From: Anaerolineales bacterium
GTDB taxonomy: Bacteria > Chloroflexota > Anaerolineae > Anaerolineales > E44-bin32
Direction of reading: 5' to 3'
Length of the DNA: 64,000 nucleotides
Assembly (NCBI GenBank): GCA_034417075.1
Contig: DAOULU010000006.1
Coordinates: 138,283-202,282 of the forward strand
In this document: piece by piece, positions 13,107 to 38,346 of the stretch
Layout: each line of letters begins with the position of its first letter
Position numbering within the stretch: the first letter of the stretch is position 1
The notes under the pieces: generated by a model
Databases searched by the model: none
Told to the model about the DNA's origin: nothing
The model's input: the letters and a program-made list of their open reading frames with translations, nothing else
Program-made: the position numbers and the translations under genes

Positions 13107-15743
13107 ATGAAGCAATATTCACTCCTCATACAACTGCTCCTCTTATCTACTGTTGTCGTGATGGCTGCAGCATTCACTCCGATCCCGGCTAACGCAAATG
13201 GTGATTGGATCGTGGTTAACACAGAAAACGATATGGACGATGGCGTCTGTGACAATACTCATTGTTCTCTCCGCGAAGCTATCAACCACGCCAACCTTCT
13301 TCCAGGGAAGCAAGGGATTTCCTTCAATATCCCGAATTCCAATCCCTTCGCCATTATCCAGGCGTGCGGTCCACTGCCAGATATCACGGACCCGGTCCTC
13401 ATCGACGGTACGTGGCCGCTCGGACCGAATGCGCCCCCCCGAGTCGTGATCCGACCCGACAAGAGACGAGAATGCCCCATAACTCCTCCCAGCCATGGAT
13501 TCTGGATCGTCGCTAATAACGTCACGATCCGCAACCTCAGCATGGTCAATTTCTTCAGCTTTCAGGCATTGGTATCCGGCGCCATCATCGTCGATACTGG
13601 AGCAAATGCAGTCATCGAAAACAACCTGCTCGGCATCTACCCCACCGGTTTCGTTCAAGGCAATTACAACGCCATTTATTTGAATGACGATCACCACACT
13701 GTACGGGACAATGTAATCTCCGGTAACTGGAATGGCATCCAGGTTCGCGGCGCGGATGTAACCATCCAGGGGAATTTTATCGGCACCGATATCTCCGGGA
13801 CTACAAGTAATTTTTCTCTACGCAATGCAATTGGAGTGTTTTTAACACTTTGGAGTGAGGCGAGTGTCATCGGTGGCGTCAATCCCGGTGAGATGAATTT
13901 GATCTCCAACAACGGAACCGGTATCGATGTCACATCCTCCCATAACACGATAATTGGGAATCAGATCGGAACGGACATTTCTGGAACTCTGGATCTGGGA
14001 AATTCCAATGGGATCATCATAACAGGACCCCGCAATACCATCGGTGGTGACCTGCCTGGAGAGGGCAATCTGATATCAGGTAATTCCATGGCAATTAGCA
14101 TCGGCACTGCCGGGGATAACAATATTATTCAAGGCAACTTGATCGGCACCGACTTCAGCGGCACCCAGCCCCTGGCAAATGCACAAGATAATTATCGCGG
14201 CATGGTTATCTTAGGTCAGGACAATTTGGTCGGCGGACTCAATGCTGGCGAGAACAATCTGATCGCCTACATTATTCACGAAGGCATTGAATTCGGAATG
14301 GATGCCAGCGACAATCAAATCCGCGGGAACACGATCATCCATAACGAACTCGGTGTGCTTGTTAAAACAGATCTCTGGGACACCGCGTTGAGAAACACAC
14401 TGACACAAAATGAGATTCACTCCAACTCTGGGTTGGGAATCGATCTCGAACCAGCCGGTGTTTCACCTAACGACCCCGGCGACACGGACAACGGCGGGAA
14501 TACGGTGCTCAACTTCCCGGAATTCAGTGTCAGCATGAATGCTGCCGCAGGAACGGCATGCCCCGAGTGTGTCGTTGAGCTCTTCTTTTCCGACAATGAC
14601 CCTTCAGGGTACGGCGAAGGTGAAACATTCATCGACAGCACCATTGCCGATACAAACGGCAACTTCATGATCCCATTAAATCTACCCATCTCCGGCTGTT
14701 CCCGTTTTTCCGCCACAGCGACGGACCTCCTGGGAAACACCTCCGAGTTTTCCGAAAACGTGGAGTTTGGTTTTTGTCTGGCGGTTGATCCCTGGGTGAT
14801 TCTCACTCCCTTGGTTGCTTTTGGGTTAAGCCTGGGAATCGGCTTCTTTGTTGGACGAAAACCCAACATCAATGGGCGCACAGCACTCGCTGCAGCCGGC
14901 GCTGCTGGTTTCGCTCTCGCGGGGACACTGTTTGTGATCTTGAGAGGACCCTCCGAACTTCCTCCACAGGGATCCGAAGACTCCGAAGTTTGGTCCAGAC
15001 TGCAATCCTGCAGTGAATATCTCGAACCGGATAGTATATCCCCCACCGAAGGGATGCTTTTCGAGCTGGAAGACGACCCCCTGTTCACCTGGGCTCCGCT
15101 CGACAACCTACCCCCGGGTTCGATCCGCTGGACGGTTGAACTGGCGAAACTTTCGGATTCACCGGAAAGCCAGAGCACGAGCGAGGCTCATCTGGCATTT
15201 TCGACATTCGGCATTCAACCCGATCCCGCAACAATCTTTAAATGGCGCCTCAGCGGAGAATTAGCCGATAAGGACGGTGGTGAATGGCGCTTCTTCTGCT
15301 CGCCCACAGACTGGCTGCCGTTTCAGATCGGCTTGCTTCCGGTCGTAAAGGCACCCTCCGATACACCCGAACCGTCACCCACACCCACTCCGACTCCAAC
15401 TTCTCAGTATTGCGTCTATACGGCGATCGAAAACGCCAATTGCCGCAGCAGTGATTACAAAGAATCGGAGCAAATCGCCATCCTCATGCAAGGTGAAAGT
15501 GCAGAACTCTTGAGCCTCAATCCCGAATTCACCCATGGACAGTTTTTACTCGATCAGGAGTTATGCTGGATCTGGCTCGGTTTGTTGGATGGGCCCGAAA
15601 ATCCCTTCGGCACGTGCAGCGTGCCGATCATCGATCCCGCACCGGCTTGCACGTCGGAACTGGATGAGCAAGCCTGTATACTCGCCGGCGGACAGATCAG
15701 TGAAACGCGCACGACAGCACCTTACTGCGTCTGCCCGGATTGA
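13107..15743 (+). CDS. Surface protein paralog 1 of 4: signal peptide, CSLREA motif, parallel beta-helix repeats, internal TM hairpin, C-terminal 8-Cys domain
   Basis: 878 aa. Signal peptide MKQYSLLIQLLLLSTVVVMAAA, VVNTENDMDDGVCDNTHCSLREAINHAN, many NxIxGNxIGTDxSGT repeats, GIDLEPAGVSPNDPGDTDNGGNTVLNFP, ATATDLLGNTSEFSEN. Two hydrophobic helices flank RKPNINGR. PT linker, then the Cys-rich end ..YCVCPD. Confidence 0.9.
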   Translation: MKQYSLLIQLLLLSTVVVMAAAFTPIPANANGDWIVVNTENDMDDGVCDNTHCSLREAINHANLLPGKQGISFNIPNSNPFAIIQACGPLPDITDPVLIDGTWPLGPNAPPRVVIRPDKRRECPITPPSHGFWIVANNVTIRNLSMVNFFSFQALVSGAIIVDTGANAVIENNLLGIYPTGFVQGNYNAIYLNDDHHTVRDNVISGNWNGIQVRGADVTIQGNFIGTDISGTTSNFSLRNAIGVFLTLWSEASVIGGVNPGEMNLISNNGTGIDVTSSHNTIIGNQIGTDISGTLDLGNSNGIIITGPRNTIGGDLPGEGNLISGNSMAISIGTAGDNNIIQGNLIGTDFSGTQPLANAQDNYRGMVILGQDNLVGGLNAGENNLIAYIIHEGIEFGMDASDNQIRGNTIIHNELGVLVKTDLWDTALRNTLTQNEIHSNSGLGIDLEPAGVSPNDPGDTDNGGNTVLNFPEFSVSMNAAAGTACPECVVELFFSDNDPSGYGEGETFIDSTIADTNGNFMIPLNLPISGCSRFSATATDLLGNTSEFSENVEFGFCLAVDPWVILTPLVAFGLSLGIGFFVGRKPNINGRTALAAAGAAGFALAGTLFVILRGPSELPPQGSEDSEVWSRLQSCSEYLEPDSISPTEGMLFELEDDPLFTWAPLDNLPPGSIRWTVELAKLSDSPESQSTSEAHLAFSTFGIQPDPATIFKWRLSGELADKDGGEWRFFCSPTDWLPFQIGLLPVVKAPSDTPEPSPTPTPTPTSQYCVYTAIENANCRSSDYKESEQIAILMQGESAELLSLNPEFTHGQFLLDQELCWIWLGLLDGPENPFGTCSVPIIDPAPACTSELDEQACILAGGQISETRTTAPYCVCPD

Positions 15744-15835: not shown

Positions 15836-18565
15836 ATGAATAAGAAGCGGATCTTGTACCTTACCCTCGCCGTAACACTGTCGCTCTTCGCCCTCGTCAT
15901 GCAGCCCATGGCTTCCGGCTACGCCGGAGGGGGCATTATCGAGGTCAACACGATAGACGACACCGACGACGGCGTCTGCGATGCGGCACACTGCTCGCTG
16001 CGCGAGGCGATCAACTGGGCCAACACCATGGCCGGTACACCGACGATCACCTTCGATATCGCCGGTTCCGGCCCGCACGTCATCGACCTGTGCCATGCGC
16101 TGCCGCAGCTGACCAGTTCGGGCACGACCATCGACGGCACCACAGAACCGAGCTACACCGGAACCCCCGTTGTCGTCGTGCACCCGGCATTTCTTTCCAA
16201 TACCCCGCCGCCGCTGACCCACGTCCCGCCGTGTATTCCGCCTTCGGTCGGTCTGTGGATCGAAACCGACGACATCACCGTGAGAGGCTTGAGCATCGTC
16301 GGTTTTCGCCAGACATGGCCGGCGATCGCCGCCGGGATCGTGGTCGCCAACGGCAGCAACAACCTTATCGATGCAAATTACATCGGTCTGGACGCCAGCG
16401 GCTCACCGGACGGTAACCGCGACGGGATTCTCCTCGGTGCAACCGGCCAAGAGGTTCGTCACAACACCATCTCCGGCAACGACACCGGCATCCACGTCCG
16501 CGCCGGCGAACAAACAATAAACGCTAACCGCATCGGCACGGATTTCTCCGGCAGCACGAGCGGAACCGGAATGGGCAACTACCGCGGTATCCGTATCGAG
16601 CCGGCCGCGGATGCCAACCACATCGGATCCTCCGATCCCATACATAAGAACGTAATCTCCGGCAATACCGCCGTCGGGATCGAGGTGGAATCCGCCGACA
16701 ACATTATCCAGGGTAACTACATCGGCTGCAACATCAGCGGCGATACCGCATTGGGCCAACAGGAAGGTGTGGTGCTCGGAGGCAACAGCAATCTTCTCGG
16801 TGGGAATAATGCCGGTGATGGCAACCTGATCTCCGGAAACGACATCGATGGCGTGATCGTTGGTGGAAGCGGTCACCAAATCCTAGGCAACACGATCGGA
16901 GCAGACATCAACGGCCTCCCATTGGGAAATCAAAATGGCATCTTCAGCATACAAAGTGACAATGTCATCATCGGCACAAACGCCACTGCCTCTGGCAACC
17001 TGATCGCGCATAACAGCTTACATGGCGTGATGCTCTTGGCGAGATCCAAAACTTACCACATCGCCGGCAACACGATCACCCAGAATGGTGGTGACGGCAT
17101 TATATTGGGAACATTTTCCATGAGTCCCGATGTCCCCGAGCAAATCACCATCAACCGCAACAGCATATACGATAACGGAGGCCTGGGGATCGACCTTTAT
17201 CCAGCCGGTGTTACACCCAACGACCCGGGCGATGCGGATTCAGGCCCCAACACGCTGCTCAATTTCCCCGAGCTCAGCCAGGTGACGTCCACCAATGCAC
17301 AGGGAACCGTCTGCGCTAGCTGCCGTGTGGAGGCTTTCATCGCCGACGGCGATCCCACAGGATACGGCGAAGGCATGACCTTCGTCGGGGAAGCGTTCGC
17401 TGACTCCTCCGGCAGCTTGAGCCTTCCACTCGACGTGAACCTGGTTTCCACCTGCGATCTGATCACGACGCGAGCGACAGACGGGGCCGGCAACAGTTCC
17501 GAATTCTCGGAAAACATGCGCGTTTCGCCCTGCTTCACGCTACGTCGGCCGTGGTTATTTGCACCACCCATCCTGCTGGGTCTGCTGGGGTTGCTCGGAG
17601 GCCGCCGCGCAGGACGCGGCAAACCCGGGCTGGCTTCCGCCGCGGGCGGCGCTGCAATCGGCGTCGGGATCGGCGGCGGACTCATCCTCCTAGCGATCGT
17701 ACTGCCCTTTGTGCACATCGAAAAACCACAGGAAGACGTAGGCTTACCCGCCGTGCAGCAGCCCTGCGATCGTTTCCTCGATCCGGCCGGGCTCTCGCCT
17801 GCCGATGGATCGATATTCGAGATCGATGACAACGGCTGGGAATTTACTTGGAGTCCATCACCCGAGATGCCAGATGGAGAGTTCCGCTGGCTCGTCGAGC
17901 TGGCGTCAGCGGACGGCAGCATACAGCAATTGACGACCACCGGAAATTCGCTGCCCTTCCTGTCCTTCGATACTGAAATCTCACAAGGCGCCGTGTTCTC
18001 CTGGCGCCTCAGCGCCGAACAGGCCATCCCCGGTACGGACCGCTGGGAGCCCTTCTGTCGGCAGTTCGCTTGGCACACCTTCCAGTTCGGCGAGCGCCCA
18101 CCGCTCAACGCCCCACCCTGGACGCCCGACGAGTGGAGTGAACCCGAAGACACGCCGACACCAACTTCAACTCCCACAGAAACTCCAACGCCGACTCCCG
18201 AGGAATTGGTTTGTGTGTACGAGGCGCTGCAGAATTCAAACTGCCGCGCCAGCGACTACGCAGAAGCGTTACAAATTTCGATCCTCATGCAGGGCGAGAC
18301 GGCCGAACTGCTAGCCTTGAACCCCGAGTTCTCCTACGGCCAATTCAACCTCGGCCAGGGCGCGTGTTGGATTTGGCTTGGCTTGCTGGACGGACCGGAA
18401 AATCCATTCGATACCTGTGACGTACCGGTCGTCGATCCGCCCTCACCGCCTACGGAGACACCGCCCGCCTGCACACCGGACCTGGATGAAGAAGCGTGTG
18501 TGCTGAGTGGTGGCACGTGGTCGGAGGGCGTGAGTCGAGCGCCCTATTGTGTGTGTCCCGAGTGA
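15836..18565 (+). CDS. Surface protein paralog 2 of 4 (same architecture)
   Basis: Colinear with paralog 1 (HCSLREAINWAN, GIDLYPAGVTPNDPGDADSGPNTLLNFP, GNSSEFSEN, loop GGRRAGRGKPG, end YCVCPE). GGAG lies 6 nt before ATG 15836. ATG 15830 and the TTG-extended ORF from 15740 are less likely starts. Confidence 0.88.
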   Translation: MNKKRILYLTLAVTLSLFALVMQPMASGYAGGGIIEVNTIDDTDDGVCDAAHCSLREAINWANTMAGTPTITFDIAGSGPHVIDLCHALPQLTSSGTTIDGTTEPSYTGTPVVVVHPAFLSNTPPPLTHVPPCIPPSVGLWIETDDITVRGLSIVGFRQTWPAIAAGIVVANGSNNLIDANYIGLDASGSPDGNRDGILLGATGQEVRHNTISGNDTGIHVRAGEQTINANRIGTDFSGSTSGTGMGNYRGIRIEPAADANHIGSSDPIHKNVISGNTAVGIEVESADNIIQGNYIGCNISGDTALGQQEGVVLGGNSNLLGGNNAGDGNLISGNDIDGVIVGGSGHQILGNTIGADINGLPLGNQNGIFSIQSDNVIIGTNATASGNLIAHNSLHGVMLLARSKTYHIAGNTITQNGGDGIILGTFSMSPDVPEQITINRNSIYDNGGLGIDLYPAGVTPNDPGDADSGPNTLLNFPELSQVTSTNAQGTVCASCRVEAFIADGDPTGYGEGMTFVGEAFADSSGSLSLPLDVNLVSTCDLITTRATDGAGNSSEFSENMRVSPCFTLRRPWLFAPPILLGLLGLLGGRRAGRGKPGLASAAGGAAIGVGIGGGLILLAIVLPFVHIEKPQEDVGLPAVQQPCDRFLDPAGLSPADGSIFEIDDNGWEFTWSPSPEMPDGEFRWLVELASADGSIQQLTTTGNSLPFLSFDTEISQGAVFSWRLSAEQAIPGTDRWEPFCRQFAWHTFQFGERPPLNAPPWTPDEWSEPEDTPTPTSTPTETPTPTPEELVCVYEALQNSNCRASDYAEALQISILMQGETAELLALNPEFSYGQFNLGQGACWIWLGLLDGPENPFDTCDVPVVDPPSPPTETPPACTPDLDEEACVLSGGTWSEGVSRAPYCVCPE

Positions 18566-18647: not shown

Positions 18648-21509
18648 ATGAATTCTCGATGGATGAAAAAGCTTGGATTGTGCGTATTGAGCACGTTGTG
18701 GCTCTTGATGTTCACCACACCTATGGCGACACAGGCTGGTGGTGGCGTGTTCGTCGTCAACACCACCGACGATCTGGACGACGGCACCTGTGACGCCACA
18801 CACTGCTCGCTGCGCGAAGCGATCAACGCGGTCAACACCTATGCGGGCACGCAGTACATCTACTTTGATATCCCCGGTCCAGGACCGCACGAGATCATGC
18901 TATGCTCGATGCTTCCATCCTTGAGCGACGACGGAACGTTGATCGACGGCACTTCGGAGCCCGATTATGGCGGCACGGTACCTGTGGTCGTGATCAAGCC
19001 GGGGATATTCAACGTGTCTTCCTATCCTGGCTGCACGCCACCACCCATCGGGATCTGGATCGCCGCCAGCGACATAACCGTGACCGGCCTGAGCATCATC
19101 GGTTTCAGGAGTCCTTCCGCATCCATCGCCGGCGGGATCGTGACTCACATGGGCTCGAACGTCACCATCCAGTGGAACTACATCGGCCTGGATCCCTCCG
19201 GAACTCCCGTCGGGAATCGAGACGGGATCCTGATAGGCTCCGAGGCGTCGCAGATCTATTCCAACCGCATCTCGGGCAACGTCATCGGCATTCACGTCTT
19301 CCGCAGCGACCACATCATCCGCTTGAACTACATCGGAACCGATCCCACGGGCACGTCGACCAGTCCTACGCTGAAAAATTCCGTCGGCATCCTGGTGGAC
19401 AATCCTTCTAGCAACGTGCATATCGGAGGCCCGAATCCCGCCTGGATGAACCTCATTTCGGGCAACGACACGGGCGTCCAAGTCGTTACGGACGGTAACT
19501 TCGTGACCAACAATCGCATCGGCGCAGACGCCAGCGGCAGCGCAGGCTTGGGCAATGACACCGGCGTATGGGTCACGGGCAACGGGAACCAAATCGAAGG
19601 CAATCAGGTCAGTGACAGCCAGATCGGCGTGCTGCTGGCCGGAAACAATAATCAAGTCTCCGGCAACTTCATTGGTACGGACGCAAGCGGCGACCTGGCG
19701 TTAGGCAACGACACCGGCGTCCACATCATCGGCAGTGATAACGTCATCGGCGGCGAGATTCCGATCATGCTCGTGCCGGGCAGCACGGCAGGAAACATCA
19801 TCTCCGGAAATGACACGGGCATCTTCCTCGGCCCGAACGCACAGAACAACTACATTAAAGGCAACAAGATCGGTGCCGGCAACAGCCCCGACTCGAGTCT
19901 GCCCAACACTACAGGCATCCTGCTCGATGGCGCCGACAACAACACGATCGGAGGTATCTATCTACCCATGGAAGCCAACTGGGTGATGCACAATATCCAG
20001 GACGGCATCCAGTTCATCACCACCGCCAGCGACAACCTGGTTCAAAACAATTACATCGCCTGGAACGACCGGGGCATCACCGCCGGCGCCACGACCGGTA
20101 CGTCGATCCAGAATACCTTTCACTACAATAACATCTACTATAACGATCAACTCGGTATCGACCTCTTCCCCTGGGGCGTGACCCCCAATGATCCGGGTGA
20201 CGCTGACAGCGGCGCCAATAATCTACAAAATTTCCCCGTGATCAGTTCGGCTACGACCACGACAGCTCAGGGGACCGCCTGTCTGGGCTGCACGGTGGAG
20301 ATTTTCGAAAGCGAAGAGGATCCCTCCGGATACGGTGAGGGCATATCACCTATCGGTGAAAGCCTTACTGACTCCTCAGGAAATTTCAGCATCAGTGTCG
20401 ATCCGCTCTCTACCGCAGGTGTCTGTGATTACGTAACCGCCACGGCGACCGACGCAAACGGCAACACCTCCGAATTTGCAGAGAACTTCCTGATCGGACC
20501 GTGCTTCACGTTCTCACCCCAACTTTTACTCTTCCTGGGTGTGGTTTTCGTGTTCGGTGGTGGGGCCGCCGGCGGGAGGCTCGGACGCGGTCGCGGCACG
20601 CGGCCAGGCCTGGGAACCGCTGCTGGCGCCGCGCTGGGCGGCGTGATCGGTGCCGGTCTGCTCCTCGCAACCTCCTTCATTCCAATTTTCCGTCTACCAC
20701 CAGAAGAGGAACATGTGGTCTCCGATGGCCTGACAGCGCTCGTCCCCTCCTGTAATGCCTACCTCGATCCGCAGGCATTCGTGCCGCAAGATGGCGCGAT
20801 CGTGCTCGACGAAAACTTCGACTTCGCATGGTCCTGGTTGAACGAGCCTTCGAACGGACGGTTCCGCTGGAGCCTGGATTTGAACGGGCCCGACGATTCC
20901 GGCCAGCAAACGACGGAGGATACTTCGCTTCCCTTCACTGCGTTTGGTTTCGCGGTCGACGACGGGGATCGATTCATCTGGCGACTGACTGGCGAGCAAT
21001 TCGACGACTCTTCCGCAGAATGGAAACCCTTCTGTGCACCATCGGCGTGGCTAACGTTCCAAATCGGACTTTCACCATTGCTGGCGCCACCGTGGACACC
21101 GGAAACGCCGGAAGAACTACCTCCGACGCCCACGAGCACACCCGAGTCTCCTGCGGGAGTCTGTCTGTACACAGCGGTACGTAACAGCAACTGCCGCGCC
21201 AGCGACTATCCGGAGTCGCTGCAGATCGATATCCTCATGCAGGGGGAATCGGCCGAACTCCTGGCCTTGAATCCCGAGTTCACCCACGGTAAATTCGAGC
21301 TCGATCACGGTCAGTGCTGGATCTGGCTGGGATTGCTGGAAGGTCCCGATAACCCATACGGCACGTGCAACGTCCCGGTCATCGATCCGCCGCCGCCACC
21401 GACCGCAACGCCACAAACCTGCACTGCGGATTTAGACGAGGACGCTTGCATCGCAAGTGGAGGCACCTGGTCGGTGACGGGCGCTGCGGGATGTGTATGC
21501 CCGGAGTGA
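18648..21509 (+). CDS. Surface protein paralog 3 of 4 (same architecture)
   Basis: 953 aa. SD AGGAGGTG upstream. HCSLREAINAVN, GIDLFPWGVTPNDPGDADSGANNLQNFP, ATATDANGNTSEFAEN, loop GGRLGRGRGTRPG, end GCVCPE. Confidence 0.9.
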   Translation: MNSRWMKKLGLCVLSTLWLLMFTTPMATQAGGGVFVVNTTDDLDDGTCDATHCSLREAINAVNTYAGTQYIYFDIPGPGPHEIMLCSMLPSLSDDGTLIDGTSEPDYGGTVPVVVIKPGIFNVSSYPGCTPPPIGIWIAASDITVTGLSIIGFRSPSASIAGGIVTHMGSNVTIQWNYIGLDPSGTPVGNRDGILIGSEASQIYSNRISGNVIGIHVFRSDHIIRLNYIGTDPTGTSTSPTLKNSVGILVDNPSSNVHIGGPNPAWMNLISGNDTGVQVVTDGNFVTNNRIGADASGSAGLGNDTGVWVTGNGNQIEGNQVSDSQIGVLLAGNNNQVSGNFIGTDASGDLALGNDTGVHIIGSDNVIGGEIPIMLVPGSTAGNIISGNDTGIFLGPNAQNNYIKGNKIGAGNSPDSSLPNTTGILLDGADNNTIGGIYLPMEANWVMHNIQDGIQFITTASDNLVQNNYIAWNDRGITAGATTGTSIQNTFHYNNIYYNDQLGIDLFPWGVTPNDPGDADSGANNLQNFPVISSATTTTAQGTACLGCTVEIFESEEDPSGYGEGISPIGESLTDSSGNFSISVDPLSTAGVCDYVTATATDANGNTSEFAENFLIGPCFTFSPQLLLFLGVVFVFGGGAAGGRLGRGRGTRPGLGTAAGAALGGVIGAGLLLATSFIPIFRLPPEEEHVVSDGLTALVPSCNAYLDPQAFVPQDGAIVLDENFDFAWSWLNEPSNGRFRWSLDLNGPDDSGQQTTEDTSLPFTAFGFAVDDGDRFIWRLTGEQFDDSSAEWKPFCAPSAWLTFQIGLSPLLAPPWTPETPEELPPTPTSTPESPAGVCLYTAVRNSNCRASDYPESLQIDILMQGESAELLALNPEFTHGKFELDHGQCWIWLGLLEGPDNPYGTCNVPVIDPPPPPTATPQTCTADLDEDACIASGGTWSVTGAAGCVCPE

Positions 21510-21582: not shown

Positions 21583-24183
21583 ATGAGAACTCGCAAACAT
21601 GTTTCCCGAGCCTGGCTAGCCCTGTGCCTGCTGGCGATGATGACACTTGCTTTTCCGATCACCGCGGAGGCCAGCACCTTCGTCGTCAACACGGTCGACG
21701 ATCTCGACGACGGAAACTGCGACGCCGATCATTGCTCTCTGCGCGAGGCGATCAATGCCGCCAATGCCAACCCCGGTGCGGACACGATTGCCTTCGACAT
21801 CTTCGGCGCCGGGCCACACGTGATCAAACTGTGCAGCCTGCTGCCCATACTCACCGACGGCGGGACGACGATTGACGGCACGACGGAACCCAGTTATGCC
21901 GGGACGCCCGTCGTTACTTTAACGCCCTCTGCGGATCCGAGTTGTACCCGACCGCACATCGGCCTATGGATCCAATCCGACGGGAACGTGATCCGTGGGC
22001 TGCACACCATCGACTTCATGCATCCAACACTGCAGCACGAATCCGCCATCTACATCGAGCGCGGCGACGGAAACCTGATCGAGTTAAATCACATCGGCTA
22101 TCAACCTACCTGTTCGCTTTTCAACACACAATACGGTGTCCGCATCGACATGGACGCCGGAAACCAGCGCATTCTCAAAAACGTATTCAACTGTAACGGA
22201 ACGGCAATCGATATCTGGGCTGGCAGCCACGTGATCCGGGACAACCTCATCGGCGTCGATCCCTCCGGCACTACGGCCATCCTCAACGGTCTGGGCATCT
22301 ACGTCTACGAAACCGCCCACGGCTCGACCATTCAGGATAACGTGGTATCGGGCAACATCAGCGCCATGGTAGTCAATTCGGACGACAACAAGATCCTGGG
22401 AAACCGCGTTGGTACGGATTGGTCGACGAACATAGCCATCCCCAATCAAGGCGGCATCAAGGTGAACGGCGATCACAACCGCGTCGGCGGCACGAATCCC
22501 GGCGAGGCAAACATCATCGCCGCCAACACCAGCATTGGTCTTGATCTGTACTGCGGCGCGGAATACAACCAGGTGTATGGCAATATCATCGGCACCAATC
22601 TTTCGGGAACCATCATCATGGGCAACCAGTACGGTGTCACCATTATGGGGAACACGAACATCATCGGGGGTATCGGCTCAGGCGAAGCAAACCGCATCCT
22701 CTTCAGCCAGGAAGCCGGGCTCAGCTTGTACGCTTTGGCGCACAAAAACCGCATCATTGGAAACGAGATCGCTTACGGCCACACGCAGGGCATTCTGGGA
22801 ACGAGTTCGATGGGCTTTCCCGAATCCAACACCTTCAGCCGAAACAGCATCCATCACAATCGTGCCCTGGGAATCGATTTGGAACCTGCGGGCGTCACGC
22901 CAAATGATCCGGGAGACGCGGATTCCGGCCCCAACACACTGCTGAACTTTCCCGTGCTCCAATCCGCCAACGTGAACACGGCCGAAGGAGACGCCTGCCC
23001 GGGCTGTACCGTGGAGATCTTCATCGCCGATTCGGGCAAAGGCGCATTCGGCGAAGGTATGAACTTCGCGGGAAGCGGCAACGCCGATCCGAGCGGTCAT
23101 TTCTCGATCCCGTTAAGCGGGGTCGGTTTCTGCGATCCGCTCACCGCCACCGCCACTGACGGCGCAGCCAACACCTCCGAGTTTGCCAAGAACATCCTGG
23201 CCAGCTGCCTGACGCTCGTATTCCCTTGGCCCGATCTCCTTTTGCTGGCGTTCATTTTTGCTGGCGCCCTGGGCAACGGGCGTCGCGGCCGAGGTAGATC
23301 GCCGGGTCGATATGCCGCCATCGGCGGCGCTGCTGGCGCAGTATTCGGCATCGCCCTGCTGACCCTGGGCAGTGCGCTTCCTAACATGCACTTGGAATTG
23401 CTCCCTCCAAAAGGGGAACCGAAGAGTGAACCACTTTGCAGCGAGTTGCTTCTACCGGATGGGTACGCTCCACCGGCAGGCGCCGTGTTCCAAACCAGCG
23501 AAGACCCATTGCTTTCCTGGACGCCGGGACCCGGCGCCGCCGACGGGATCGTCTGGCAGGTAGAACTCAGTGCACCTGACGGCTCAATTTTGAATCAAAC
23601 GACTCAGGAGACAAGCATCGCCTTCAGCAGCTTCATGTTCCCCACTCAACCAGGATTTTACCGCTGGCGCATCACCGCCAGAGAGGGCAATGCCCCAGGA
23701 GCCCTGGGGAAAGCCTTATGTTCACCGACATCGTGGATGCCGCTTTCCTTCGAAGGACCACAGCGCGAGGAAACACCGGAAGAAACGCCGACATCGACCC
23801 CCACGCCGACTCCCACAGAAGAGACGTCAGCATGTGTCTACACCGCGCTGCAAAATGCCAACTGCCGGGAGAGCGACTACGTCGAATCGGATCAGATGGC
23901 CATTCTCATGCAGGGCGAAAGCGCCGAACTGTTGGCGTTGAACCCCGAGTTTACCCACGGTGAGTTCGAGGTCGATCAGCACCAATGCTGGATCTGGCTC
24001 GGGTTGCTGGACGGTCCTGAAAACCCATACGGCACATGCGACATTCCAGTCGTTGATCCGCCTCCACCGCCGACCGCGACGCCACAGATTTGCACAGAGG
24101 ATTTGAACGAGGAAGATTGCGTGGCCAGCGGCGGTGTATGGTCCGAGGGAATCACGGATCGCCTCTACTGCATCTGTCCTTAA
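21583..24183 (+). CDS. Surface protein paralog 4 of 4 (same architecture)
   Basis: HCSLREAINAANANPGADTIAFDI, GIDLEPAGVTPNDPGDADSGPNTLLNFP, ATATDGAANTSEFAKN, loop NGRRGRGRSPGR, end YCICP. ATG at 21583 (TTG at 21580 also possible). Confidence 0.9.
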   Translation: MRTRKHVSRAWLALCLLAMMTLAFPITAEASTFVVNTVDDLDDGNCDADHCSLREAINAANANPGADTIAFDIFGAGPHVIKLCSLLPILTDGGTTIDGTTEPSYAGTPVVTLTPSADPSCTRPHIGLWIQSDGNVIRGLHTIDFMHPTLQHESAIYIERGDGNLIELNHIGYQPTCSLFNTQYGVRIDMDAGNQRILKNVFNCNGTAIDIWAGSHVIRDNLIGVDPSGTTAILNGLGIYVYETAHGSTIQDNVVSGNISAMVVNSDDNKILGNRVGTDWSTNIAIPNQGGIKVNGDHNRVGGTNPGEANIIAANTSIGLDLYCGAEYNQVYGNIIGTNLSGTIIMGNQYGVTIMGNTNIIGGIGSGEANRILFSQEAGLSLYALAHKNRIIGNEIAYGHTQGILGTSSMGFPESNTFSRNSIHHNRALGIDLEPAGVTPNDPGDADSGPNTLLNFPVLQSANVNTAEGDACPGCTVEIFIADSGKGAFGEGMNFAGSGNADPSGHFSIPLSGVGFCDPLTATATDGAANTSEFAKNILASCLTLVFPWPDLLLLAFIFAGALGNGRRGRGRSPGRYAAIGGAAGAVFGIALLTLGSALPNMHLELLPPKGEPKSEPLCSELLLPDGYAPPAGAVFQTSEDPLLSWTPGPGAADGIVWQVELSAPDGSILNQTTQETSIAFSSFMFPTQPGFYRWRITAREGNAPGALGKALCSPTSWMPLSFEGPQREETPEETPTSTPTPTPTEETSACVYTALQNANCRESDYVESDQMAILMQGESAELLALNPEFTHGEFEVDQHQCWIWLGLLDGPENPYGTCDIPVVDPPPPPTATPQICTEDLNEEDCVASGGVWSEGITDRLYCICP

Positions 24184-24352: not shown

Positions 24353-25498
24353 ATGAGCCTTCCCTCAAGAATAAAATCAACCACACTCGTTTTCATACTG
24401 GTGACGAGCATCATCCTTGCGGCATGTCATTTCCCAGGAATGGGCCCCACGCCGGACTTGTTCGCCACCTCCGCTGCAGAAACCGTTTCCGCACGGCTTA
24501 CGCAACCAGTGGAACCCGGCACAGATGAGACAACAGAGCCCGAGCCGCCCGTGATCGCCACGACCGAAGCCCCACCGACAGAGGAACCCCCTACGCCAAC
24601 GACTACGCTCACCCCCACGATCACGCAGACCACAATCCCCTGCGATCGCGCCAGTTTCGTTTCGGACGTTACCATCCCCGACGGGGAGGAATTAGAACCG
24701 AACGAGAGTTTCACCAAAACCTGGCGGTTGAAAAATAACGGTTCCTGCACCTGGACCTCCAGCTACGCGCTCACTTTCGACAGCGGTGATTCGATGAGCG
24801 GACCTGCATCCAAACAGCTTACCAGTGGAACTGTAGCACCTGGCGCCACAATGGACGTCTCCGTCAATCTGACGGCGCCGAGTTCGCCGGGAACGTACAA
24901 AGGTTACTGGAAACTGCGCAACGGATCGGGAGTGAATTTCGGAATTGGAACTGGCGGCGTAAATCCTTTCTGGGTTGAAATCAAGGTCGTTCCCAACACA
25001 ACCACGGTTACCATTCCCATGAAAGAAATGGAAAGCGGACAAGTGCAGTCCACCGGCTCGACAGGCTTTGGAAGGTACGTGGGGGATAGCCACACGAATA
25101 CGTCCACACAAGCCTTCGTCAGCTTCGATATAAGTGCGATACCTTCGGACGCCATCATCACGGAGGTCACGATAAAGATTAGTAATTTCAACGATACCGG
25201 AGATCCATTTGGCGATTTGGGACCTATGTTCATCTACAAAGATGATTACGGTAGCTTGGATTCGACCGACTATGTAAGCAGCACTCCAGGGACAGGTCGG
25301 CTTATCGCCTGGAATTCAACCTCTCAATTGGGAACCACGATCCCCGACAACGACATGGTCAATGCGGTTCAGAGTAAAGTGGGTAGCAGTCGCTTTAGAG
25401 TTCGATTCCAATTCGCCAACGACACGAACAATGATAACGGCGCCGACTATCTGGAACTGGTCTCGATTGTGATCAAGGTAACCTACTACACGCCATAG
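24353..25498 (+). CDS. Lipoprotein with NBR1-like Ig domain and C-terminal beta-rich domain (cassette A)
   Basis: Lipobox ILAAC, PT/E-rich linker. The CDRASFVSDVTIPDGEELEPNESFTKTWRLKNNGSCTWTSSYALTFDSGD...PGTYKGYWKLRN pattern is typical of bacterial 'next to BRCA1'-type Ig-like domains. SD GAAGGAG upstream. Confidence 0.85.
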   Translation: MSLPSRIKSTTLVFILVTSIILAACHFPGMGPTPDLFATSAAETVSARLTQPVEPGTDETTEPEPPVIATTEAPPTEEPPTPTTTLTPTITQTTIPCDRASFVSDVTIPDGEELEPNESFTKTWRLKNNGSCTWTSSYALTFDSGDSMSGPASKQLTSGTVAPGATMDVSVNLTAPSSPGTYKGYWKLRNGSGVNFGIGTGGVNPFWVEIKVVPNTTTVTIPMKEMESGQVQSTGSTGFGRYVGDSHTNTSTQAFVSFDISAIPSDAIITEVTIKISNFNDTGDPFGDLGPMFIYKDDYGSLDSTDYVSSTPGTGRLIAWNSTSQLGTTIPDNDMVNAVQSKVGSSRFRVRFQFANDTNNDNGADYLELVSIVIKVTYYTP

Positions 25499-25831: not shown

Positions 25832-26980
25832 ATGAGCCCTCCGGCACGATTGAGAACAACACTCATTTTAATGCTCGCGATCAGTATCGTCCTATCGGCG
25901 TGCAATTTCCCCGGTATGGGTGCCACACCGGATCTGTTCGCCACATCTGCAGCGCAAACCGTCGCCGCCCGTCTCACCCAACCAGCGGGACCGGGCAATG
26001 ATGGGACCACGCCACCCGAGCCACCGCAGATTGCAACAACCGAAGCCCCTCCAACGGAGGAACCACCTACGCCCACGTCGACCATAACGCTGACGCCCAC
26101 GATCACGCAGACCACAATCCCCTGCGATCGCGCCAGCTTTATCACGGACGTCACCATCCCCGACGGAGAAGAATTGGAACCGAACGAGAGCTTCACCAAG
26201 ACCTGGCGCCTGAAAAACAACGGCTCCTGCACCTGGACCTCCAGCTATGCGCTCATTTTCGACAGCGGCGATTCCATGGGAGGACCCGCATCCAAACAGC
26301 TTACCAGCGGGACCGTTGCACCCGGTGCCATTATGGACGTCTCCGTCAACTTAACGGCGCCCAGTTCGCCGGGTACCTACAAGGGATACTGGAAACTGCG
26401 CAACGGTTCCGGGGTAAATTTCGGCATCGGTACCGGCGGCACCAATCCGTTCTATGTCGAAATCAAAGTCGTGCCCAACACGGCCACGACTACGGTTCCT
26501 CTCGTCGTTGGCGAAAGCGGTCAGGTCACGAAAAGCACCTATATCTCCGGGGATAAAATTGCCGGAGATAACGGATCGAACGATTCGTCCCAGGCTTTCC
26601 TTAGCTTCAACATCACCGGAATCCCGTCGGATGCCGTCATTACGGAAGTCGTCATCGATCTCGGTGACTTCACCGTGATCGGGACGCCGTTCTCAGCTTT
26701 GGGGCCACTGTTTATCTACAAGGATGATTATGGCGGTTTGGATGCCTCCGACTTCGTCAACAGCACACCATCTTCCGGCCGACTCATAGCCTGGAATTCA
26801 ACATCAAGCTTGGGGAACGCCGTCTCGGATAACGACATGGTCAACGCCCTGCAAACCAAAGTGGGATCGAGTCGCTTCAGATTGCGTCTGCAGTTCAACA
26901 AACAAACCGACAACGATGGCGCAAGCGATCACCTGACTTTCAACACTGTGATCCTCAAAGTCACCTACTACACGCCCTGA
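25832..26980 (+). CDS. Lipoprotein with NBR1-like Ig domain and C-terminal beta-rich domain (cassette B, paralog of 24353-25498)
   Basis: Lipobox VLSAC. The N-terminal two thirds are near-identical to cassette A and the C-terminal third is clearly more diverged. SD GAAGGAG upstream. Confidence 0.85.
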   Translation: MSPPARLRTTLILMLAISIVLSACNFPGMGATPDLFATSAAQTVAARLTQPAGPGNDGTTPPEPPQIATTEAPPTEEPPTPTSTITLTPTITQTTIPCDRASFITDVTIPDGEELEPNESFTKTWRLKNNGSCTWTSSYALIFDSGDSMGGPASKQLTSGTVAPGAIMDVSVNLTAPSSPGTYKGYWKLRNGSGVNFGIGTGGTNPFYVEIKVVPNTATTTVPLVVGESGQVTKSTYISGDKIAGDNGSNDSSQAFLSFNITGIPSDAVITEVVIDLGDFTVIGTPFSALGPLFIYKDDYGGLDASDFVNSTPSSGRLIAWNSTSSLGNAVSDNDMVNALQTKVGSSRFRLRLQFNKQTDNDGASDHLTFNTVILKVTYYTP

Positions 26981-27132: not shown

Positions 27133-28809
27133 ATGGTTGCGAATGTGCTCGTAGTTGAAGAGACGGAAGAATTCGGGTCTTTGATCCGTAACGCGCTCGA
27201 AGACACCGGGCGGTATCAGGTGTCACTGGCGATGAACGCTGACGAGGCGATCGAGATCGGAGATCGGGAAAATATCCACTTGCTAATCATCGACTTCGAT
27301 CTCTCCGAAGCCGATGCACCGGCCTGTATTCAACGCATCCAATCCACCAATCCGGACATGGCCATTATCGCCATTCCGCCCAACAACGATCCACACGATC
27401 CTGCCTTTTCAAGTCTCTCAATCCGCGGCGTGCTGACGAAGCCTTTTTACCTTCCCGAACTCAACGAGATCGTCTCCGCAGCGATAGATCTGCCAACGCA
27501 GGCTGTGGAAACGGATCAGATCCGGGAATCCATCCCGCAGGAACCCCCTTTCAGCGAGGCCGCGGAACCACCAACGCCCTGGCCTAACGACGTGGATCAA
27601 GCCACGCAGCACCTCGCCAGGGTATGCGGCGATACGTCTGCCGAAGCGTTGATCCTCTTGCATCACGGCCAGCGATGGGCACAAACGGGTGGAATTACAC
27701 CGGATCAAGCCGAAGGACTTGCGGTCAAGATTGCTGAAATTGGAGTCGGCGCTGGCGCCCGTGGAGCAATCACCACCCTGACTCGTTTACCAGGCACAAA
27801 GCGGGATTGCATCCTGTATGCCAATGGTCTGATACCGAATTGGATTTTGGCGCTGGTTTATCCCTCCGGCACATCCTTCGGGATCATCCGCCGCCAGGCT
27901 GGGCACACCGCGGACAGACTCAAATACATGGACCTGGATGATCACGAGGAAGACCTCCCTCCCATACCGACGTCCGCGCCCGATACCGCACCGATTTCAG
28001 CTCGAGACGAAGAAGATACATCGTTCGATGAAATCTTCGGTGTGGAGCCAGATGCCCAGGAAATTCCGTTTTTCGAAGATCTCGACCTGCCTCCCAAACC
28101 GATCCCTGCGCCCGATACCGCACCGATTTCTGCTCGAGACGAAGAAGATACATCGTTCGATGAAATCTTCGGTGCGGAGCCAGATGCCCAGGAAATTCCG
28201 TTTTTCGAAGATCTCGATCTTCCCCCTCCGGAGCCGGATGAAACGCCAGCGAAGGTTGACGAGGACCGGATCGAAGAAGCGGACACCGCTGCAGCGATTC
28301 CGGGGGATTGGGTGCCGGACAAACCCAAACCTGAATCCCACCTGCCTTTCCTCGAAGAAGGCGCCTTCCCGAGTACGGACTCCGCATCAACAGCGCTGGA
28401 GCCCATCCCGCTGCCCGACGCGGAGTACTACCTCCCCGTCACTGCAGTGCTTGTGCCTCGGTTCCCGGAACACCGCCTGACGGGTCCCCTTGTGGAAAAT
28501 CTACAGGAATGGGTGGTTCGCCTTTGCCTGGCGTGGGATTGGCGCGCGGATGAAGTGTCGATCGAACCCGATTATCTCTGCCTGACGATGAGCATTTCCC
28601 CGGAGACGGCGCCTTCGAACGCGGTTCTCCGGCTTCGGGATGATCTATCACAGCGGATACTCAGCGCATTTCCCGAATTTGTAGACGACCTGCCTTCCCG
28701 ACGTTTTTGGGCGCGCAGCTACCTGCTGATCACCGGCGGACCACCGCCAGCGAAACGACTGCAAGAGTTCGTCGAAACCACACGCAAGAGCCAAGGGATC
28801 GAAATCTAA
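27133..28809 (+). CDS. Receiver (REC)-like domain, acidic repeat linker, C-terminal IS200/TnpA (Y1 transposase)-like domain lacking the HUH motif
   Basis: N-terminus VLVVEETEEF...HLLIIDFDL...LTKPF resembles a CheY-like receiver, with EE in place of the DD pocket. The C-terminus aligns by eye to IS200 TnpA: YLPVTAVLVPRF (YHIVFxxKYR), PDYLCLTMSISPE (xDHxHxLxxxPP), RFWARSYLLITGG (FWxRGYYxxTVG). Confidence 0.7.
   Translation: MVANVLVVEETEEFGSLIRNALEDTGRYQVSLAMNADEAIEIGDRENIHLLIIDFDLSEADAPACIQRIQSTNPDMAIIAIPPNNDPHDPAFSSLSIRGVLTKPFYLPELNEIVSAAIDLPTQAVETDQIRESIPQEPPFSEAAEPPTPWPNDVDQATQHLARVCGDTSAEALILLHHGQRWAQTGGITPDQAEGLAVKIAEIGVGAGARGAITTLTRLPGTKRDCILYANGLIPNWILALVYPSGTSFGIIRRQAGHTADRLKYMDLDDHEEDLPPIPTSAPDTAPISARDEEDTSFDEIFGVEPDAQEIPFFEDLDLPPKPIPAPDTAPISARDEEDTSFDEIFGAEPDAQEIPFFEDLDLPPPEPDETPAKVDEDRIEEADTAAAIPGDWVPDKPKPESHLPFLEEGAFPSTDSASTALEPIPLPDAEYYLPVTAVLVPRFPEHRLTGPLVENLQEWVVRLCLAWDWRADEVSIEPDYLCLTMSISPETAPSNAVLRLRDDLSQRILSAFPEFVDDLPSRRFWARSYLLITGGPPPAKRLQEFVETTRKSQGIEI
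27952..28215 (+). repeat. In-frame tandem direct repeat, 2 x 132 bp (44 aa each), plus a partial third start
   Basis: Unit 1 27952-28083 is DLPPIPTSAPDTAPISARDEEDTSFDEIFGVEPDAQEIPFFEDL. Unit 2 28084-28215 is DLPPKPIPAPDTAPISARDEEDTSFDEIFGAEPDAQEIPFFEDL. DLPPPEPD follows. Confidence 0.95.
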
Positions 28810-37743: not shown

Positions 37744-38346
37744 ATGTCGAATCCTTACTCGTTTAACCACGAAGCCGAATGGCAGACACCTGCGCCAGAA
37801 AAGCCACAGAACCGGATCGTTCGCTACTTCGGTGAATTTTTGCAGACGGCTTTAATCGCCCTGCTGCTCTTTCTGGCCGTCAATCTCCTTACGGCGCGCA
37901 TTCGCGTCGAAGGCATCAGCATGGAACCGAGCCTACACGACGGTCAATTCGTGGTCGTGAATCGGCTGGCGTATCGCTGGCAAGAACCCAACCGCGGAGA
38001 CATCATCGTCTTCTACTTCCCCCAAAATCCCTCGCGGCGATTCATCAAACGTGTAATTGGCCTGCCAGGGGACACAATCGACGTTCAATCCGGTCATGTA
38101 TATGTCAACGGAACCTTGTTGGAAGAGCCCTATATCGCCGCTCCGGCGAACTTCTCCGGCGAGTGGCGCGTCGACCGGAACGATGTCTTCGTTCTCGGAG
38201 ATAACCGCAATAACTCTTCTGATTCGCCAGATTGGGGCGGATTGCCCATCAACGAAATTATCGGAAAAGCGATTTTCGTTTATTGGCCGCTGGATACCGT
38301 TGGACTCATCCCTCATTATGATCTCGTCGGGGCCGCCGAAGAGTAA
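37744..38346 (+). CDS. lepB: Signal peptidase I
   Basis: TM anchor, catalytic Ser box GISMEPSL, Lys box FIKRVIGLPGD, GDNRNNSSDS box. Confidence 0.93.
   Translation: MSNPYSFNHEAEWQTPAPEKPQNRIVRYFGEFLQTALIALLLFLAVNLLTARIRVEGISMEPSLHDGQFVVVNRLAYRWQEPNRGDIIVFYFPQNPSRRFIKRVIGLPGDTIDVQSGHVYVNGTLLEEPYIAAPANFSGEWRVDRNDVFVLGDNRNNSSDSPDWGGLPINEIIGKAIFVYWPLDTVGLIPHYDLVGAAEE

Follow-up and report, generated by a model that had tools for sequence, protein, structure and literature searches.

A predicted membrane hairpin joins two putatively exported modules in tandem CSLREA β-helix proteins of an Anaerolineales bacterium

CSLREA β-helix proteins combine a signal peptide, the CSLREA motif, β-helix repeats and an immunoglobulin (Ig)-like domain ending in GNTSEFS, and distant members of the family stop at or near this motif or use other anchors. 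Tripartite sorting signals (LPXTG, PEP-CTERM, IPTL-CTERM TIGR04174, MYXO-CTERM) associate a hydrophobic helix with two to five arginines, in proteins that have a signal peptide and occur in several copies per genome. According to the criteria of Haft, a signal of this type is C-terminal, has a signature motif of its own, is portable, comprises a helix and a basic cluster, and is found in multiple copies together with a signal peptide (10.1101/2023.06.07.544157). We analyzed a 64-kb stretch of DNA, designated the window, from an Anaerolineales bacterium (assembly GCA_034417075.1, contig DAOULU010000006.1, positions 138,283 to 202,282). Four tandem plus-strand genes of the window, P1 to P4, encode CSLREA β-helix proteins. 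In the Anaerolineales clade that includes these proteins, the architecture shared with other CSLREA proteins is extended by a hairpin of two hydrophobic, putatively transmembrane (TM) helices, TM1 and TM2, and by a second ectodomain.

Hairpins of this kind and the positive-inside rule belong to standard Sec topogenesis. The leader peptidase Lep of E. coli likewise has two helices connected by a short positive cytoplasmic loop, and the second of them, which is not cleaved, directs the export of a large C-terminal domain. Lep lacks a signal peptide and has a very short N-terminal tail, whereas a cleavable signal peptide is predicted to export an ectodomain of ca. 520 residues first in the proteins of the window. 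There is no sequence homology between Lep and the latter proteins, which alone have large folded modules on both sides of the hairpin. In viral glycoprotein polyproteins (alphavirus E2-6K-E1, bunyavirus Gn-Gc), too, an internal signal comes after a stop-transfer anchor, and the pair is flanked by ectodomains. These internal signals end in signal peptidase sites that are cut, whereas the corresponding site does not appear to be conserved in the hairpin proteins, and the resemblance is an analogy only. The idea of an anchor-type sorting signal located in the middle of a protein is shared with the NCBIfam family midcut-by-XrtH (NF033207), which we take to bear a PEP-CTERM-like signal at mid-protein. 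However, the window proteins do not match that model and belong to another phylum and another sorting system. The Pfam glycine-zipper families (Rick_17kDa_Anti PF05433, Gly-zipper_Omp PF13488, and Gly-zipper_YMGG PF13441) have in common with the hairpin a GxxxGxxxG motif in a Gly/Ala-rich helix beside a second helix. They are small lipoproteins, in contrast to hairpins located within 900-residue proteins, and the matches of their hidden Markov models to the window proteins were insignificant.

P1 to P4 are each probably a single uncleaved polypeptide anchored in the cytoplasmic membrane by a helical hairpin with both ends outside (N-out/C-out). For topology, the absence of cleavage, and function, we argue from sequence anatomy, conservation, and domain folds. 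In every paralog, two hydrophobic helices and an Arg-rich connecting loop are located directly 3' of the GNTSEFS end of the Ig-like domain. TM1 is located between residues 548 and 643 in proteins of 867 to 953 residues, and 260 to 300 residues remain after TM2. Listing and translation of the open reading frames (ORFs) reproduced the peptides and junction coordinates that an earlier note on this DNA had reported for the four paralogs. Kyte-Doolittle profiles (19-residue windows) displayed two peaks above 1.8 at the hairpin positions in P1, P3, and P4. TM1 of P2 (PWLFAPPILLGLLGLLGG) was less hydrophobic, remaining under the threshold of 1.5. TM2 comprises 21 to 24 residues in the four proteins, or 25 to 28 if the hydrophobic-Pro motif that follows is included. 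An AlphaFold2 model of full-length P4, based on an alignment of 72 homologs, had a mean predicted local distance difference test (pLDDT) score of 87. An earlier run based on 10 sequences gave poor confidence for the hairpin and the SH3-like domain. In the model, residues 550–567 and 575–599 form two helices of antiparallel length, bordered by short strands (residues 544–547 and 603–606).

Residues 1–578 of P4, used as a query, retrieved 120 full-length relatives of 700 to 1000 residues, and an exhaustive search with a profile of the FN3-like domain located after the hairpin provided additional sequences. The family comprises at least 125 sequence clusters. The relatives retrieved with the P4 query are named 'CSLREA domain-containing protein' and assigned to Anaerolineales or Anaerolineae in their sources, where names are given. 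Searches with sub-fragments returned apparent 'split' relatives, which were contig-end fragments and were ruled out with the 578-residue query. The hairpin directly follows the SEFS motif in 125 cluster representatives, nearly all from Anaerolineales. All 125 have a cysteine ahead of TM1 and two uncharged runs of at least 18 residues separated by a strictly basic loop. The latter has a median length of 7 residues and a net charge of +1 to +6 (median +4). The median uncharged run of TM2 is 29 residues. The ten residues past TM2 have a mean net charge of –1.2, the first charged residue being acidic in 83 of the 125 sequences. A hydrophobic-Pro motif ('LPxVxhE'; LPFVHIE, LPNVHLE, LPAIQIE, and others) closes TM2 in 106 sequences. 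Alignment of 72 full-length sequences revealed that C543 (P4 numbering) is invariant and that conservation reaches 90% or more at G586 and P601. The earlier note had drawn attention to GxxxG-type packing motifs, and GxxxG was indeed found in 113 of the 125 TM2 segments. The extended motif GxxxGxxxG was present in 64 of them, versus 11.8 expected from composition-preserving shuffles, an approximately fivefold enrichment. In P4, this glycine zipper is formed by G582, G586, and G590.

Five other Anaerolineales metagenome-assembled genomes (MAGs) contributed 16 more copies (loci L001 to L008), all of them fused. Between orthologs of different MAGs, identity was 69–91% for TM2 and 67–97% for the loop, on par with the folded domains. 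The occurrence of the hairpin, in register in the four paralogs, the 16 copies from MAGs, and the 125 database relatives, is far beyond chance. A full-text literature search on 'CSLREA' returned no paper about the hairpin family. This sizeable family of Anaerolineales has apparently not been described.

The hairpin was retained in proteins whose other modules differ. The module located after the hairpin is of the FN3 type in 103 of the 125 relatives, and consists of tandem Cys-rich repeats (CGNGxVDxGEQCDGDDL) or of a short helical segment in the remaining ones. The type of C-terminal domain present in the window proteins was recognizable at the end of those variant C-terminal modules that were shown in full. 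Conversely, the β-helix is missing from P0244 (L012, 335–1759), which has kept a signal peptide, a GNISDFS remnant of the N-terminal module, TM1, a loop of ca. 100 residues, TM2, and the FN3 and SH3-like domains. The hairpin therefore behaves as a unit that is kept despite exchange of the C-terminal module or, in P0244, loss of the β-helix. The gene for P0244 is located upstream from hisG, as is that for P0241 (L013, 5001–5813), which begins at a TM2-like helix. This suggests stepwise decay at a single locus.

The module preceding the hairpin is clearly a member of the CSLREA β-helix family. The N-termini of P1 to P4 are hydrophobic and end in ANA, GYA, TQA, and AEA. CSLREA_Nterm (TIGR04214) matched the four paralogs with 38.3 to 46.7 bits for a cut-off of 25, and P1 and P2 additionally matched the Pfam models Beta_helix or NosD above cut-off. 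The β-helix of P4 was modeled with pLDDT values above 90, and its Foldseek matches in the PDB were alginate C-5 epimerases and polysaccharide lyases or depolymerases. A Big_6-like Ig domain closes the module with the sequence ATATDxxGNTSEFSxN, followed by the cysteine.

After the hairpin, the P4 model contains a β-sandwich. The domain at this position was predicted with an FN3-like fold (pLDDT 85–95), and its Foldseek matches in the PDB were FN3 domains. A Pro/Thr-rich (PT) linker follows, then a Cys-containing domain of ca. 70 residues (CVYxAxxNxNCRxSDY...CWIWLGLLDGP), and then a tail with the pattern CTxDLDxxxC..GG.W....CxCP. The small domain of P4 has six strands modeled with pLDDT values above 90, and Foldseek retrieved an SH3 domain (TM-score 0.72, E value 0.037, rank 48). 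In the window proteins, the CWIWL domain had no Pfam match, the bacterial SH3 model PF08239 being considered, and no Pfam model spanned the hairpin or the C-terminal module. Matches to SH3_3, all below the Pfam cut-off, were detected in 4 of 21 aligned relatives of the domain (best E value 3e-5). Each of the three best PDB profile matches was an SH3 domain, and two of these domains belong to cell-wall-binding proteins, but the E values were only 0.2 to 0.7. Since these profile matches are weak or below threshold, we designate the domain SH3b-like by inference. The SH3b-like domain, mostly with the tail CxxDLDxxxCxxxGGxW...CxCP, also ends otherwise unrelated lipoproteins and β-helix proteins of Anaerolineales MAGs and related metagenome contigs (L008 2571–3845 and 6107–7360; P0006 and P0008 to P0011), some of which bear a lipobox. 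The domain and its tail thus appear to behave like a portable module for retention in the envelope.

Both flanks of the hairpin look extracytoplasmic, because a signal peptide, a CSLREA domain, and a β-helix are found on one side, and an FN3-like fold and an end domain shared with lipoproteins on the other. Cysteines are conserved throughout both ectodomains, which fits disulfides. The N-out/C-out orientation is proposed because the signal peptide, the basic loop between two helices of membrane length, the acidic outer flanks, and the extracellular folds with conserved cysteines on both sides all point in the same direction. Export would be initiated by the N-terminal signal peptide, with its canonical AxA-type end, which would direct the CSLREA/β-helix/Ig-like module of ca. 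520 residues to the Sec machinery before being removed. TM1 would then act as a stop-transfer anchor, and the Arg-rich loop of 7 to 11 residues would remain in the cytoplasm according to the positive-inside rule. TM2, which is long, Gly/Ala-rich, and delimited by the hydrophobic-Pro motif, would be an uncleaved internal start-transfer sequence (signal anchor). It would re-open export for the C-terminal module of ca. 270 residues, comprising the FN3-like domain, the PT linker, the SH3b-like domain, and the Cys-rich tail. The earlier note had compared the loop and TM2 to the n- and h-regions of a signal peptide, and the comparison is apt for an internal export signal, the loop being basic in all 125 relatives. 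The glycine zipper probably serves helix packing, TM2 contacting TM1 or neighboring copies, and possibly serves oligomerization. The expected product would be displayed at the surface of a Chloroflexota cell, probably a monoderm one, with two arms tied to the membrane via the hairpin. One arm would be a carbohydrate-active or carbohydrate-binding β-helix and the other a probable wall- or matrix-binding module. The coordinates of the modules in the four proteins are given in Table 1.

Table 1. Features of the P1 to P4 array and of neighboring genes (positions are those of the window).
Feature	Position	Strand	Description	Basis
P1	13107..15743	+	878 aa; order: signal peptide, CSLREA domain, β-helix, Ig-like domain (end GNTSEFSEN), hairpin, FN3-like domain, PT linker, SH3b-like domain, Cys-rich tail	ORF listing, translation, profile scans, paralog alignment
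P1 signal peptide	aa 1-30		end ANA	
P1 TM1	14787..14855	+	DPWVILTPLVAFGLSLGIGFFVG; invariant Cys at aa 557 just ahead	hydropathy
P1 loop	14856..14879	+	RKPNINGR, net +3; predicted cytoplasmic	positive-inside rule
P1 TM2	14880..14942	+	TALAAAGAAGFALAGTLFVIL; many small-xxx-small motifs	hydropathy
P1 FN3-like domain	14943..15356	+	ca. 130 aa; two conserved Cys	AlphaFold2, Foldseek
P2	15830..18565	+	911 aa counted from ATG 15830	
P2 hairpin	17549..17722	+	TM1 17549-17602, loop RRAGRGKPG 17603-17629, TM2 17630-17701, LPFVHIE 17702-17722	
P2 FN3-like domain	17702..18115	+	ca. 130 aa; two conserved Cys	AlphaFold2, Foldseek
P3	18648..21509	+	953 aa	
P3 hairpin	20514..20699	+	TM1 20514-20576, loop RLGRGRGTRPG 20577-20609, TM2 20610-20678, IPIFRLP 20679-20699	
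P3 FN3-like domain	20679..21089	+	ca. 130 aa; two conserved Cys	AlphaFold2, Foldseek
P4	21580..24183	+	867 aa	
P4 hairpin	23221..23397	+	TM1 23221-23280, loop RRGRGRSPGR 23281-23310, TM2 23311-23376, LPNMHLE 23377-23397	
P4 FN3-like domain	23377..23772	+	ca. 130 aa; two conserved Cys	AlphaFold2, Foldseek
P4 SH3b-like domain and Cys-rich tail	23833..24183	+	CVYTALQNANCR...CWIWLGLLDGP; tail CTxDLxxxxC..GG.W....CxCP	
NBR1-like Ig protein, first copy	24353..25498	+	hydrophobic N-terminal leader; PF16158, E value 6.6e-29	Pfam scan
NBR1-like Ig protein, second copy	25832..26980	+	hydrophobic N-terminal leader; tandem paralog of the first copy	
Receiver-Y1 protein	27133..28809	+	558 aa; response-regulator receiver (aa 5-114), IS200-like Y1 transposase domain (aa 437-548)	
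Signal peptidase I (Peptidase_S26)	37744..38346	+	between Der GTPase and GAF histidine kinase genes	

The earlier note had proposed that each gene is a fusion of two secreted proteins, with TM1 and the arginine cluster laid out like a C-terminal anchor. The latter comparison holds for distant relatives of the N-terminal module, some of which end at this position with such anchors. In P0224, a tail matching IPTL-CTERM TIGR04174 (25.2 bits for a cut-off of 20.5) is located right after GNTSEFS, and the corresponding score of P0033 was 19 bits. Other relatives end with a type IX secretion system tail (P0029 and P0217) or a dockerin (P0212). C-terminal modules also stand alone with an N-terminal helix of their own. 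P0251 (310 residues) is a complete C-terminal module preceded by a stop 20 codons upstream, the upstream gene being on the other strand, and P0239 is a complete ORF of 155 residues. A modular origin is therefore plausible. The other expectation of a fusion, a gene ending at TM1 beside a gene starting at the loop, was not borne out, since no such split pair was found among ca. 140 copies of the family. P0239, P0241, and P0251 were considered as split halves and rejected, since they are genuine solo genes whose upstream neighbors are on the opposite strand and do not encode a β-helix. P0228 was rejected because only 59 bp separate it from the end of its contig, which measures 1.3 kb. Separately, a short motif, (V/I)YLP(L/V)hx(K/R), was observed within ca. 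15 residues of the C-terminus in 15 of 94 shorter relatives of the N-terminal module (P0012, P0014, P0017, P0019 to P0022, P0025, P0028, P0049, P0066, P0072, P0083, P0087, and P0091). It looks like hLPxhxh, the motif with which TM2 ends in the hairpin proteins, and could be an undescribed C-terminal signal of Chloroflexota.

Several observations weigh against an uncleaved membrane hairpin in all members of the family. TM1 of P2 is short and has an arginine at both sides, the hairpin helices of P4 were modeled with pLDDT values of only 59 to 75, and the SH3b membership of the C-terminal domain is under the Pfam threshold. The TM2 ends of the P4 and P3 ortholog groups (LGSA|LP and ATS|FIP) are acceptable to signal peptidase I, and cleavage is therefore possible in some members. 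The LPxVxhE motif, which is strongly conserved and located where TM2 ends on the outer side, could serve as a site of recognition. These last points would be accounted for by a processing seam, in which the chain is cut either at the outer end of TM2, by signal peptidase or a different enzyme, or at TM1, by a sorting enzyme. The products would be a TM1-anchored β-helix protein and a C-terminal module separately released or bound to the wall, as in viral glycoprotein polyproteins. Such processing is unlikely in our assessment, although the position of the hydrophobic-Pro motif is that expected for an outer-face protease, the residues ahead of LP are mostly G-S-A in P4-type orthologs, and the solo C-terminal modules have their own helix. 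The name of the midcut-by-XrtH family also implies that mid-protein sorting signals exist. In two distant relatives, P0208 and P0210, a TM helix and an Arg cluster precede another hydrophobic stretch, which ends in ...ASC|GDD or ...AAC|GDE and after which only ca. 40 residues remain. This stretch looks like a lipoprotein signal, and the arrangement is the closest case seen to an anchor followed by a second signal peptide. TM1 and the Arg cluster mimic the tripartite anchor of P0224, and TM1 displays the hydrophobic helix, the cluster of two to five basic residues, the N-terminal signal peptide, and the several copies (four in the window) listed by Haft. However, TM1 is not C-terminal, lacks a signature motif specific to it, and is not portable, the complete hairpin proteins examined all carrying a CSLREA-type N-terminal module except P0244, with its remnant. 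Between the SEF motif and G586, Cys-543 is the sole invariant residue. It was rejected as a MYXO-CTERM-like signature because a cysteine also follows SEFS in the TM-less relatives P0215, P0216, and P0223, and is therefore assigned to the Ig-like domain. The TM1-plus-loop peptides of the four paralogs had no NCBIfam match at E values up to 10, whereas the tail of P0224, used as a control, matched IPTL-CTERM. Neither these peptides nor the full-length window proteins matched NF033207. Residues conforming to the –3/–1 rule just before the hydrophobic-Pro motif were found in 35 of 105 sequences, and 54 of these 105 have leucine, valine, phenylalanine, or isoleucine at position –1. The N-terminal signal peptides of the family conformed in 113 of 113 cases, with the proviso that a wider search window was used for the latter. 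Position –1 varies even among P4 orthologs (T in P0107, V in P0112). TM2 of the window proteins is also longer than the 7- to 15-residue h-region of cleavable Sec signals, and both this length and the median run in the family are typical of uncleaved signal anchors. In addition, the ORFs of the window that were scanned revealed neither a sortase nor an exosortase, rhomboid, or CPBP gene, and P0244 keeps the hairpin although it has no N-terminal module to release. Thus, cleavage at the hairpin, which the earlier note had put forward as a possible maturation step, is unsupported by the sequences, which offered no split genes, no CTERM match for TM1, and no signal peptidase I site that appears conserved across the family. 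A bolder version, in which the hairpin is a mid-protein sorting or maturation signal of monoderm Chloroflexota and a putative envelope protease reads LPxVxhE or the Cys-TM1-Arg element once the hairpin is inserted, seems to us improbable. If this were true, the products would be a β-helix enzyme or adhesin anchored in the membrane and, apart from it, an SH3b-type module bound to the wall. Such processing would parallel, in bacteria, that of viral glycoprotein polyproteins, and the hairpin would represent a new class of sorting signals.

The glycine zipper raises a different possibility that is compatible with an uncleaved anchor. The main role of the hairpin might be oligomerization, the zipper of TM2 bringing the four paralogs or numerous copies together in a membrane-embedded bundle or lattice that could organize a surface layer or form a pore-like assembly. 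Glycine zippers are over-represented in the helices of homo-oligomeric channels. The enrichment of GxxxGxxxG, the near-invariance of G586, the conservation of the hairpin at the level of folded domains, and the maintenance of the four paralog types in synteny across MAGs would agree with this role. We nevertheless hold it to be rather unlikely. The zipper equally suits intramolecular packing of TM1 and TM2, and the glycine-zipper models PF05433, PF13488, and PF13441 matched the window proteins at best with E values of 0.078 to 1.8 and 9 to 13 bits, for cut-offs of 24 to 29. Furthermore, a fixed four-part complex is not obligatory, as P3 is missing from locus L005. That the hydrophobic stretches do not span the membrane at all, being a buried interdomain linker or a low-complexity artifact, would be in keeping with the weak hydrophobicity of TM1 in P2 and with the moderate AlphaFold2 confidence for the helices. 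This appears very improbable, since the pair of long uncharged runs with a strictly basic loop is present in all 125 relatives, the helices are predicted to be isolated outside any domain core, and the charge asymmetry obeys the positive-inside rule. The uncleaved N-out/C-out hairpin therefore remains our preferred interpretation.

The four genes of the array are related over their whole length, P2 to P4 being 41–44% identical to P1. P4 corresponds to database protein P0106 (866 residues, NCBI contig of 308,585 bp), to which it is identical across the 578 residues queried. The annotated start of P2 is ambiguous because its open frame reaches back to a TTG at 15740, overlapping the P1 stop at 15743, while ATG 15830 is the first codon of the signal peptide, and P0145, the copy in the database (909 residues), starts two codons further downstream. 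ORFs on the opposite strand (for example 14417–15178, minus) were set aside because they overlap conserved plus-strand genes supported by homologs. The window is a housekeeping stretch of Anaerolineales type encoding UvrA, a MacB-type ABC exporter, MiaB, PolA, CdaA, Der, ComEC, and TrpRS. The gene order LysM protein, esterase, MiaB, P1-P2-(P3)-P4, two NBR1-like Ig proteins, REC-Y1 transposase-like protein, and PolA recurs in contigs of four other Anaerolineales MAGs, with protein identities of 57–90%. Locus L005 (MAG N6_271) contains P1, P2, and P4 without P3, indicating that the four-gene set is not obligatory. The sole signal peptidase I gene of the window, located ca. 14 kb downstream of the array among unrelated genes, probably encodes a housekeeping enzyme, linkage to the array not being evident.

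The two tandem paralogs located directly downstream of the array encode proteins with hydrophobic N-terminal leaders. An NBR1-type Ig domain was detected in the product of the first copy, the one that was scanned. The pair keeps its position in four other loci, with 78–85% identity, and may work together with the hairpin proteins. The following gene encodes a protein combining a response-regulator receiver and a Y1 transposase domain, which is syntenic in other Anaerolineales MAGs (57–77% identity) and resembles a transposase that has been domesticated and placed under phospho-control.

The prevailing view of Chloroflexota is that of monoderm bacteria whose envelopes are multilayered, the protein and polysaccharide layers not having been identified yet (PMC13319060). 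Conserved arrays of three or four hairpin genes are found beside housekeeping genes in several Anaerolineales genomes, and their products are concrete candidates for components of these layers. They would represent an undescribed build of surface protein, in which a single chain with a central hairpin anchor carries a β-helix arm of carbohydrate-active type and a putative wall-binding SH3b-like arm. They may also provide a natural test case for the handling by the Sec machinery of a large ectodomain that is succeeded by a hairpin and by a further ectodomain. Cleavage at the hairpin, if it were shown, would make the latter a sorting signal of a new kind.

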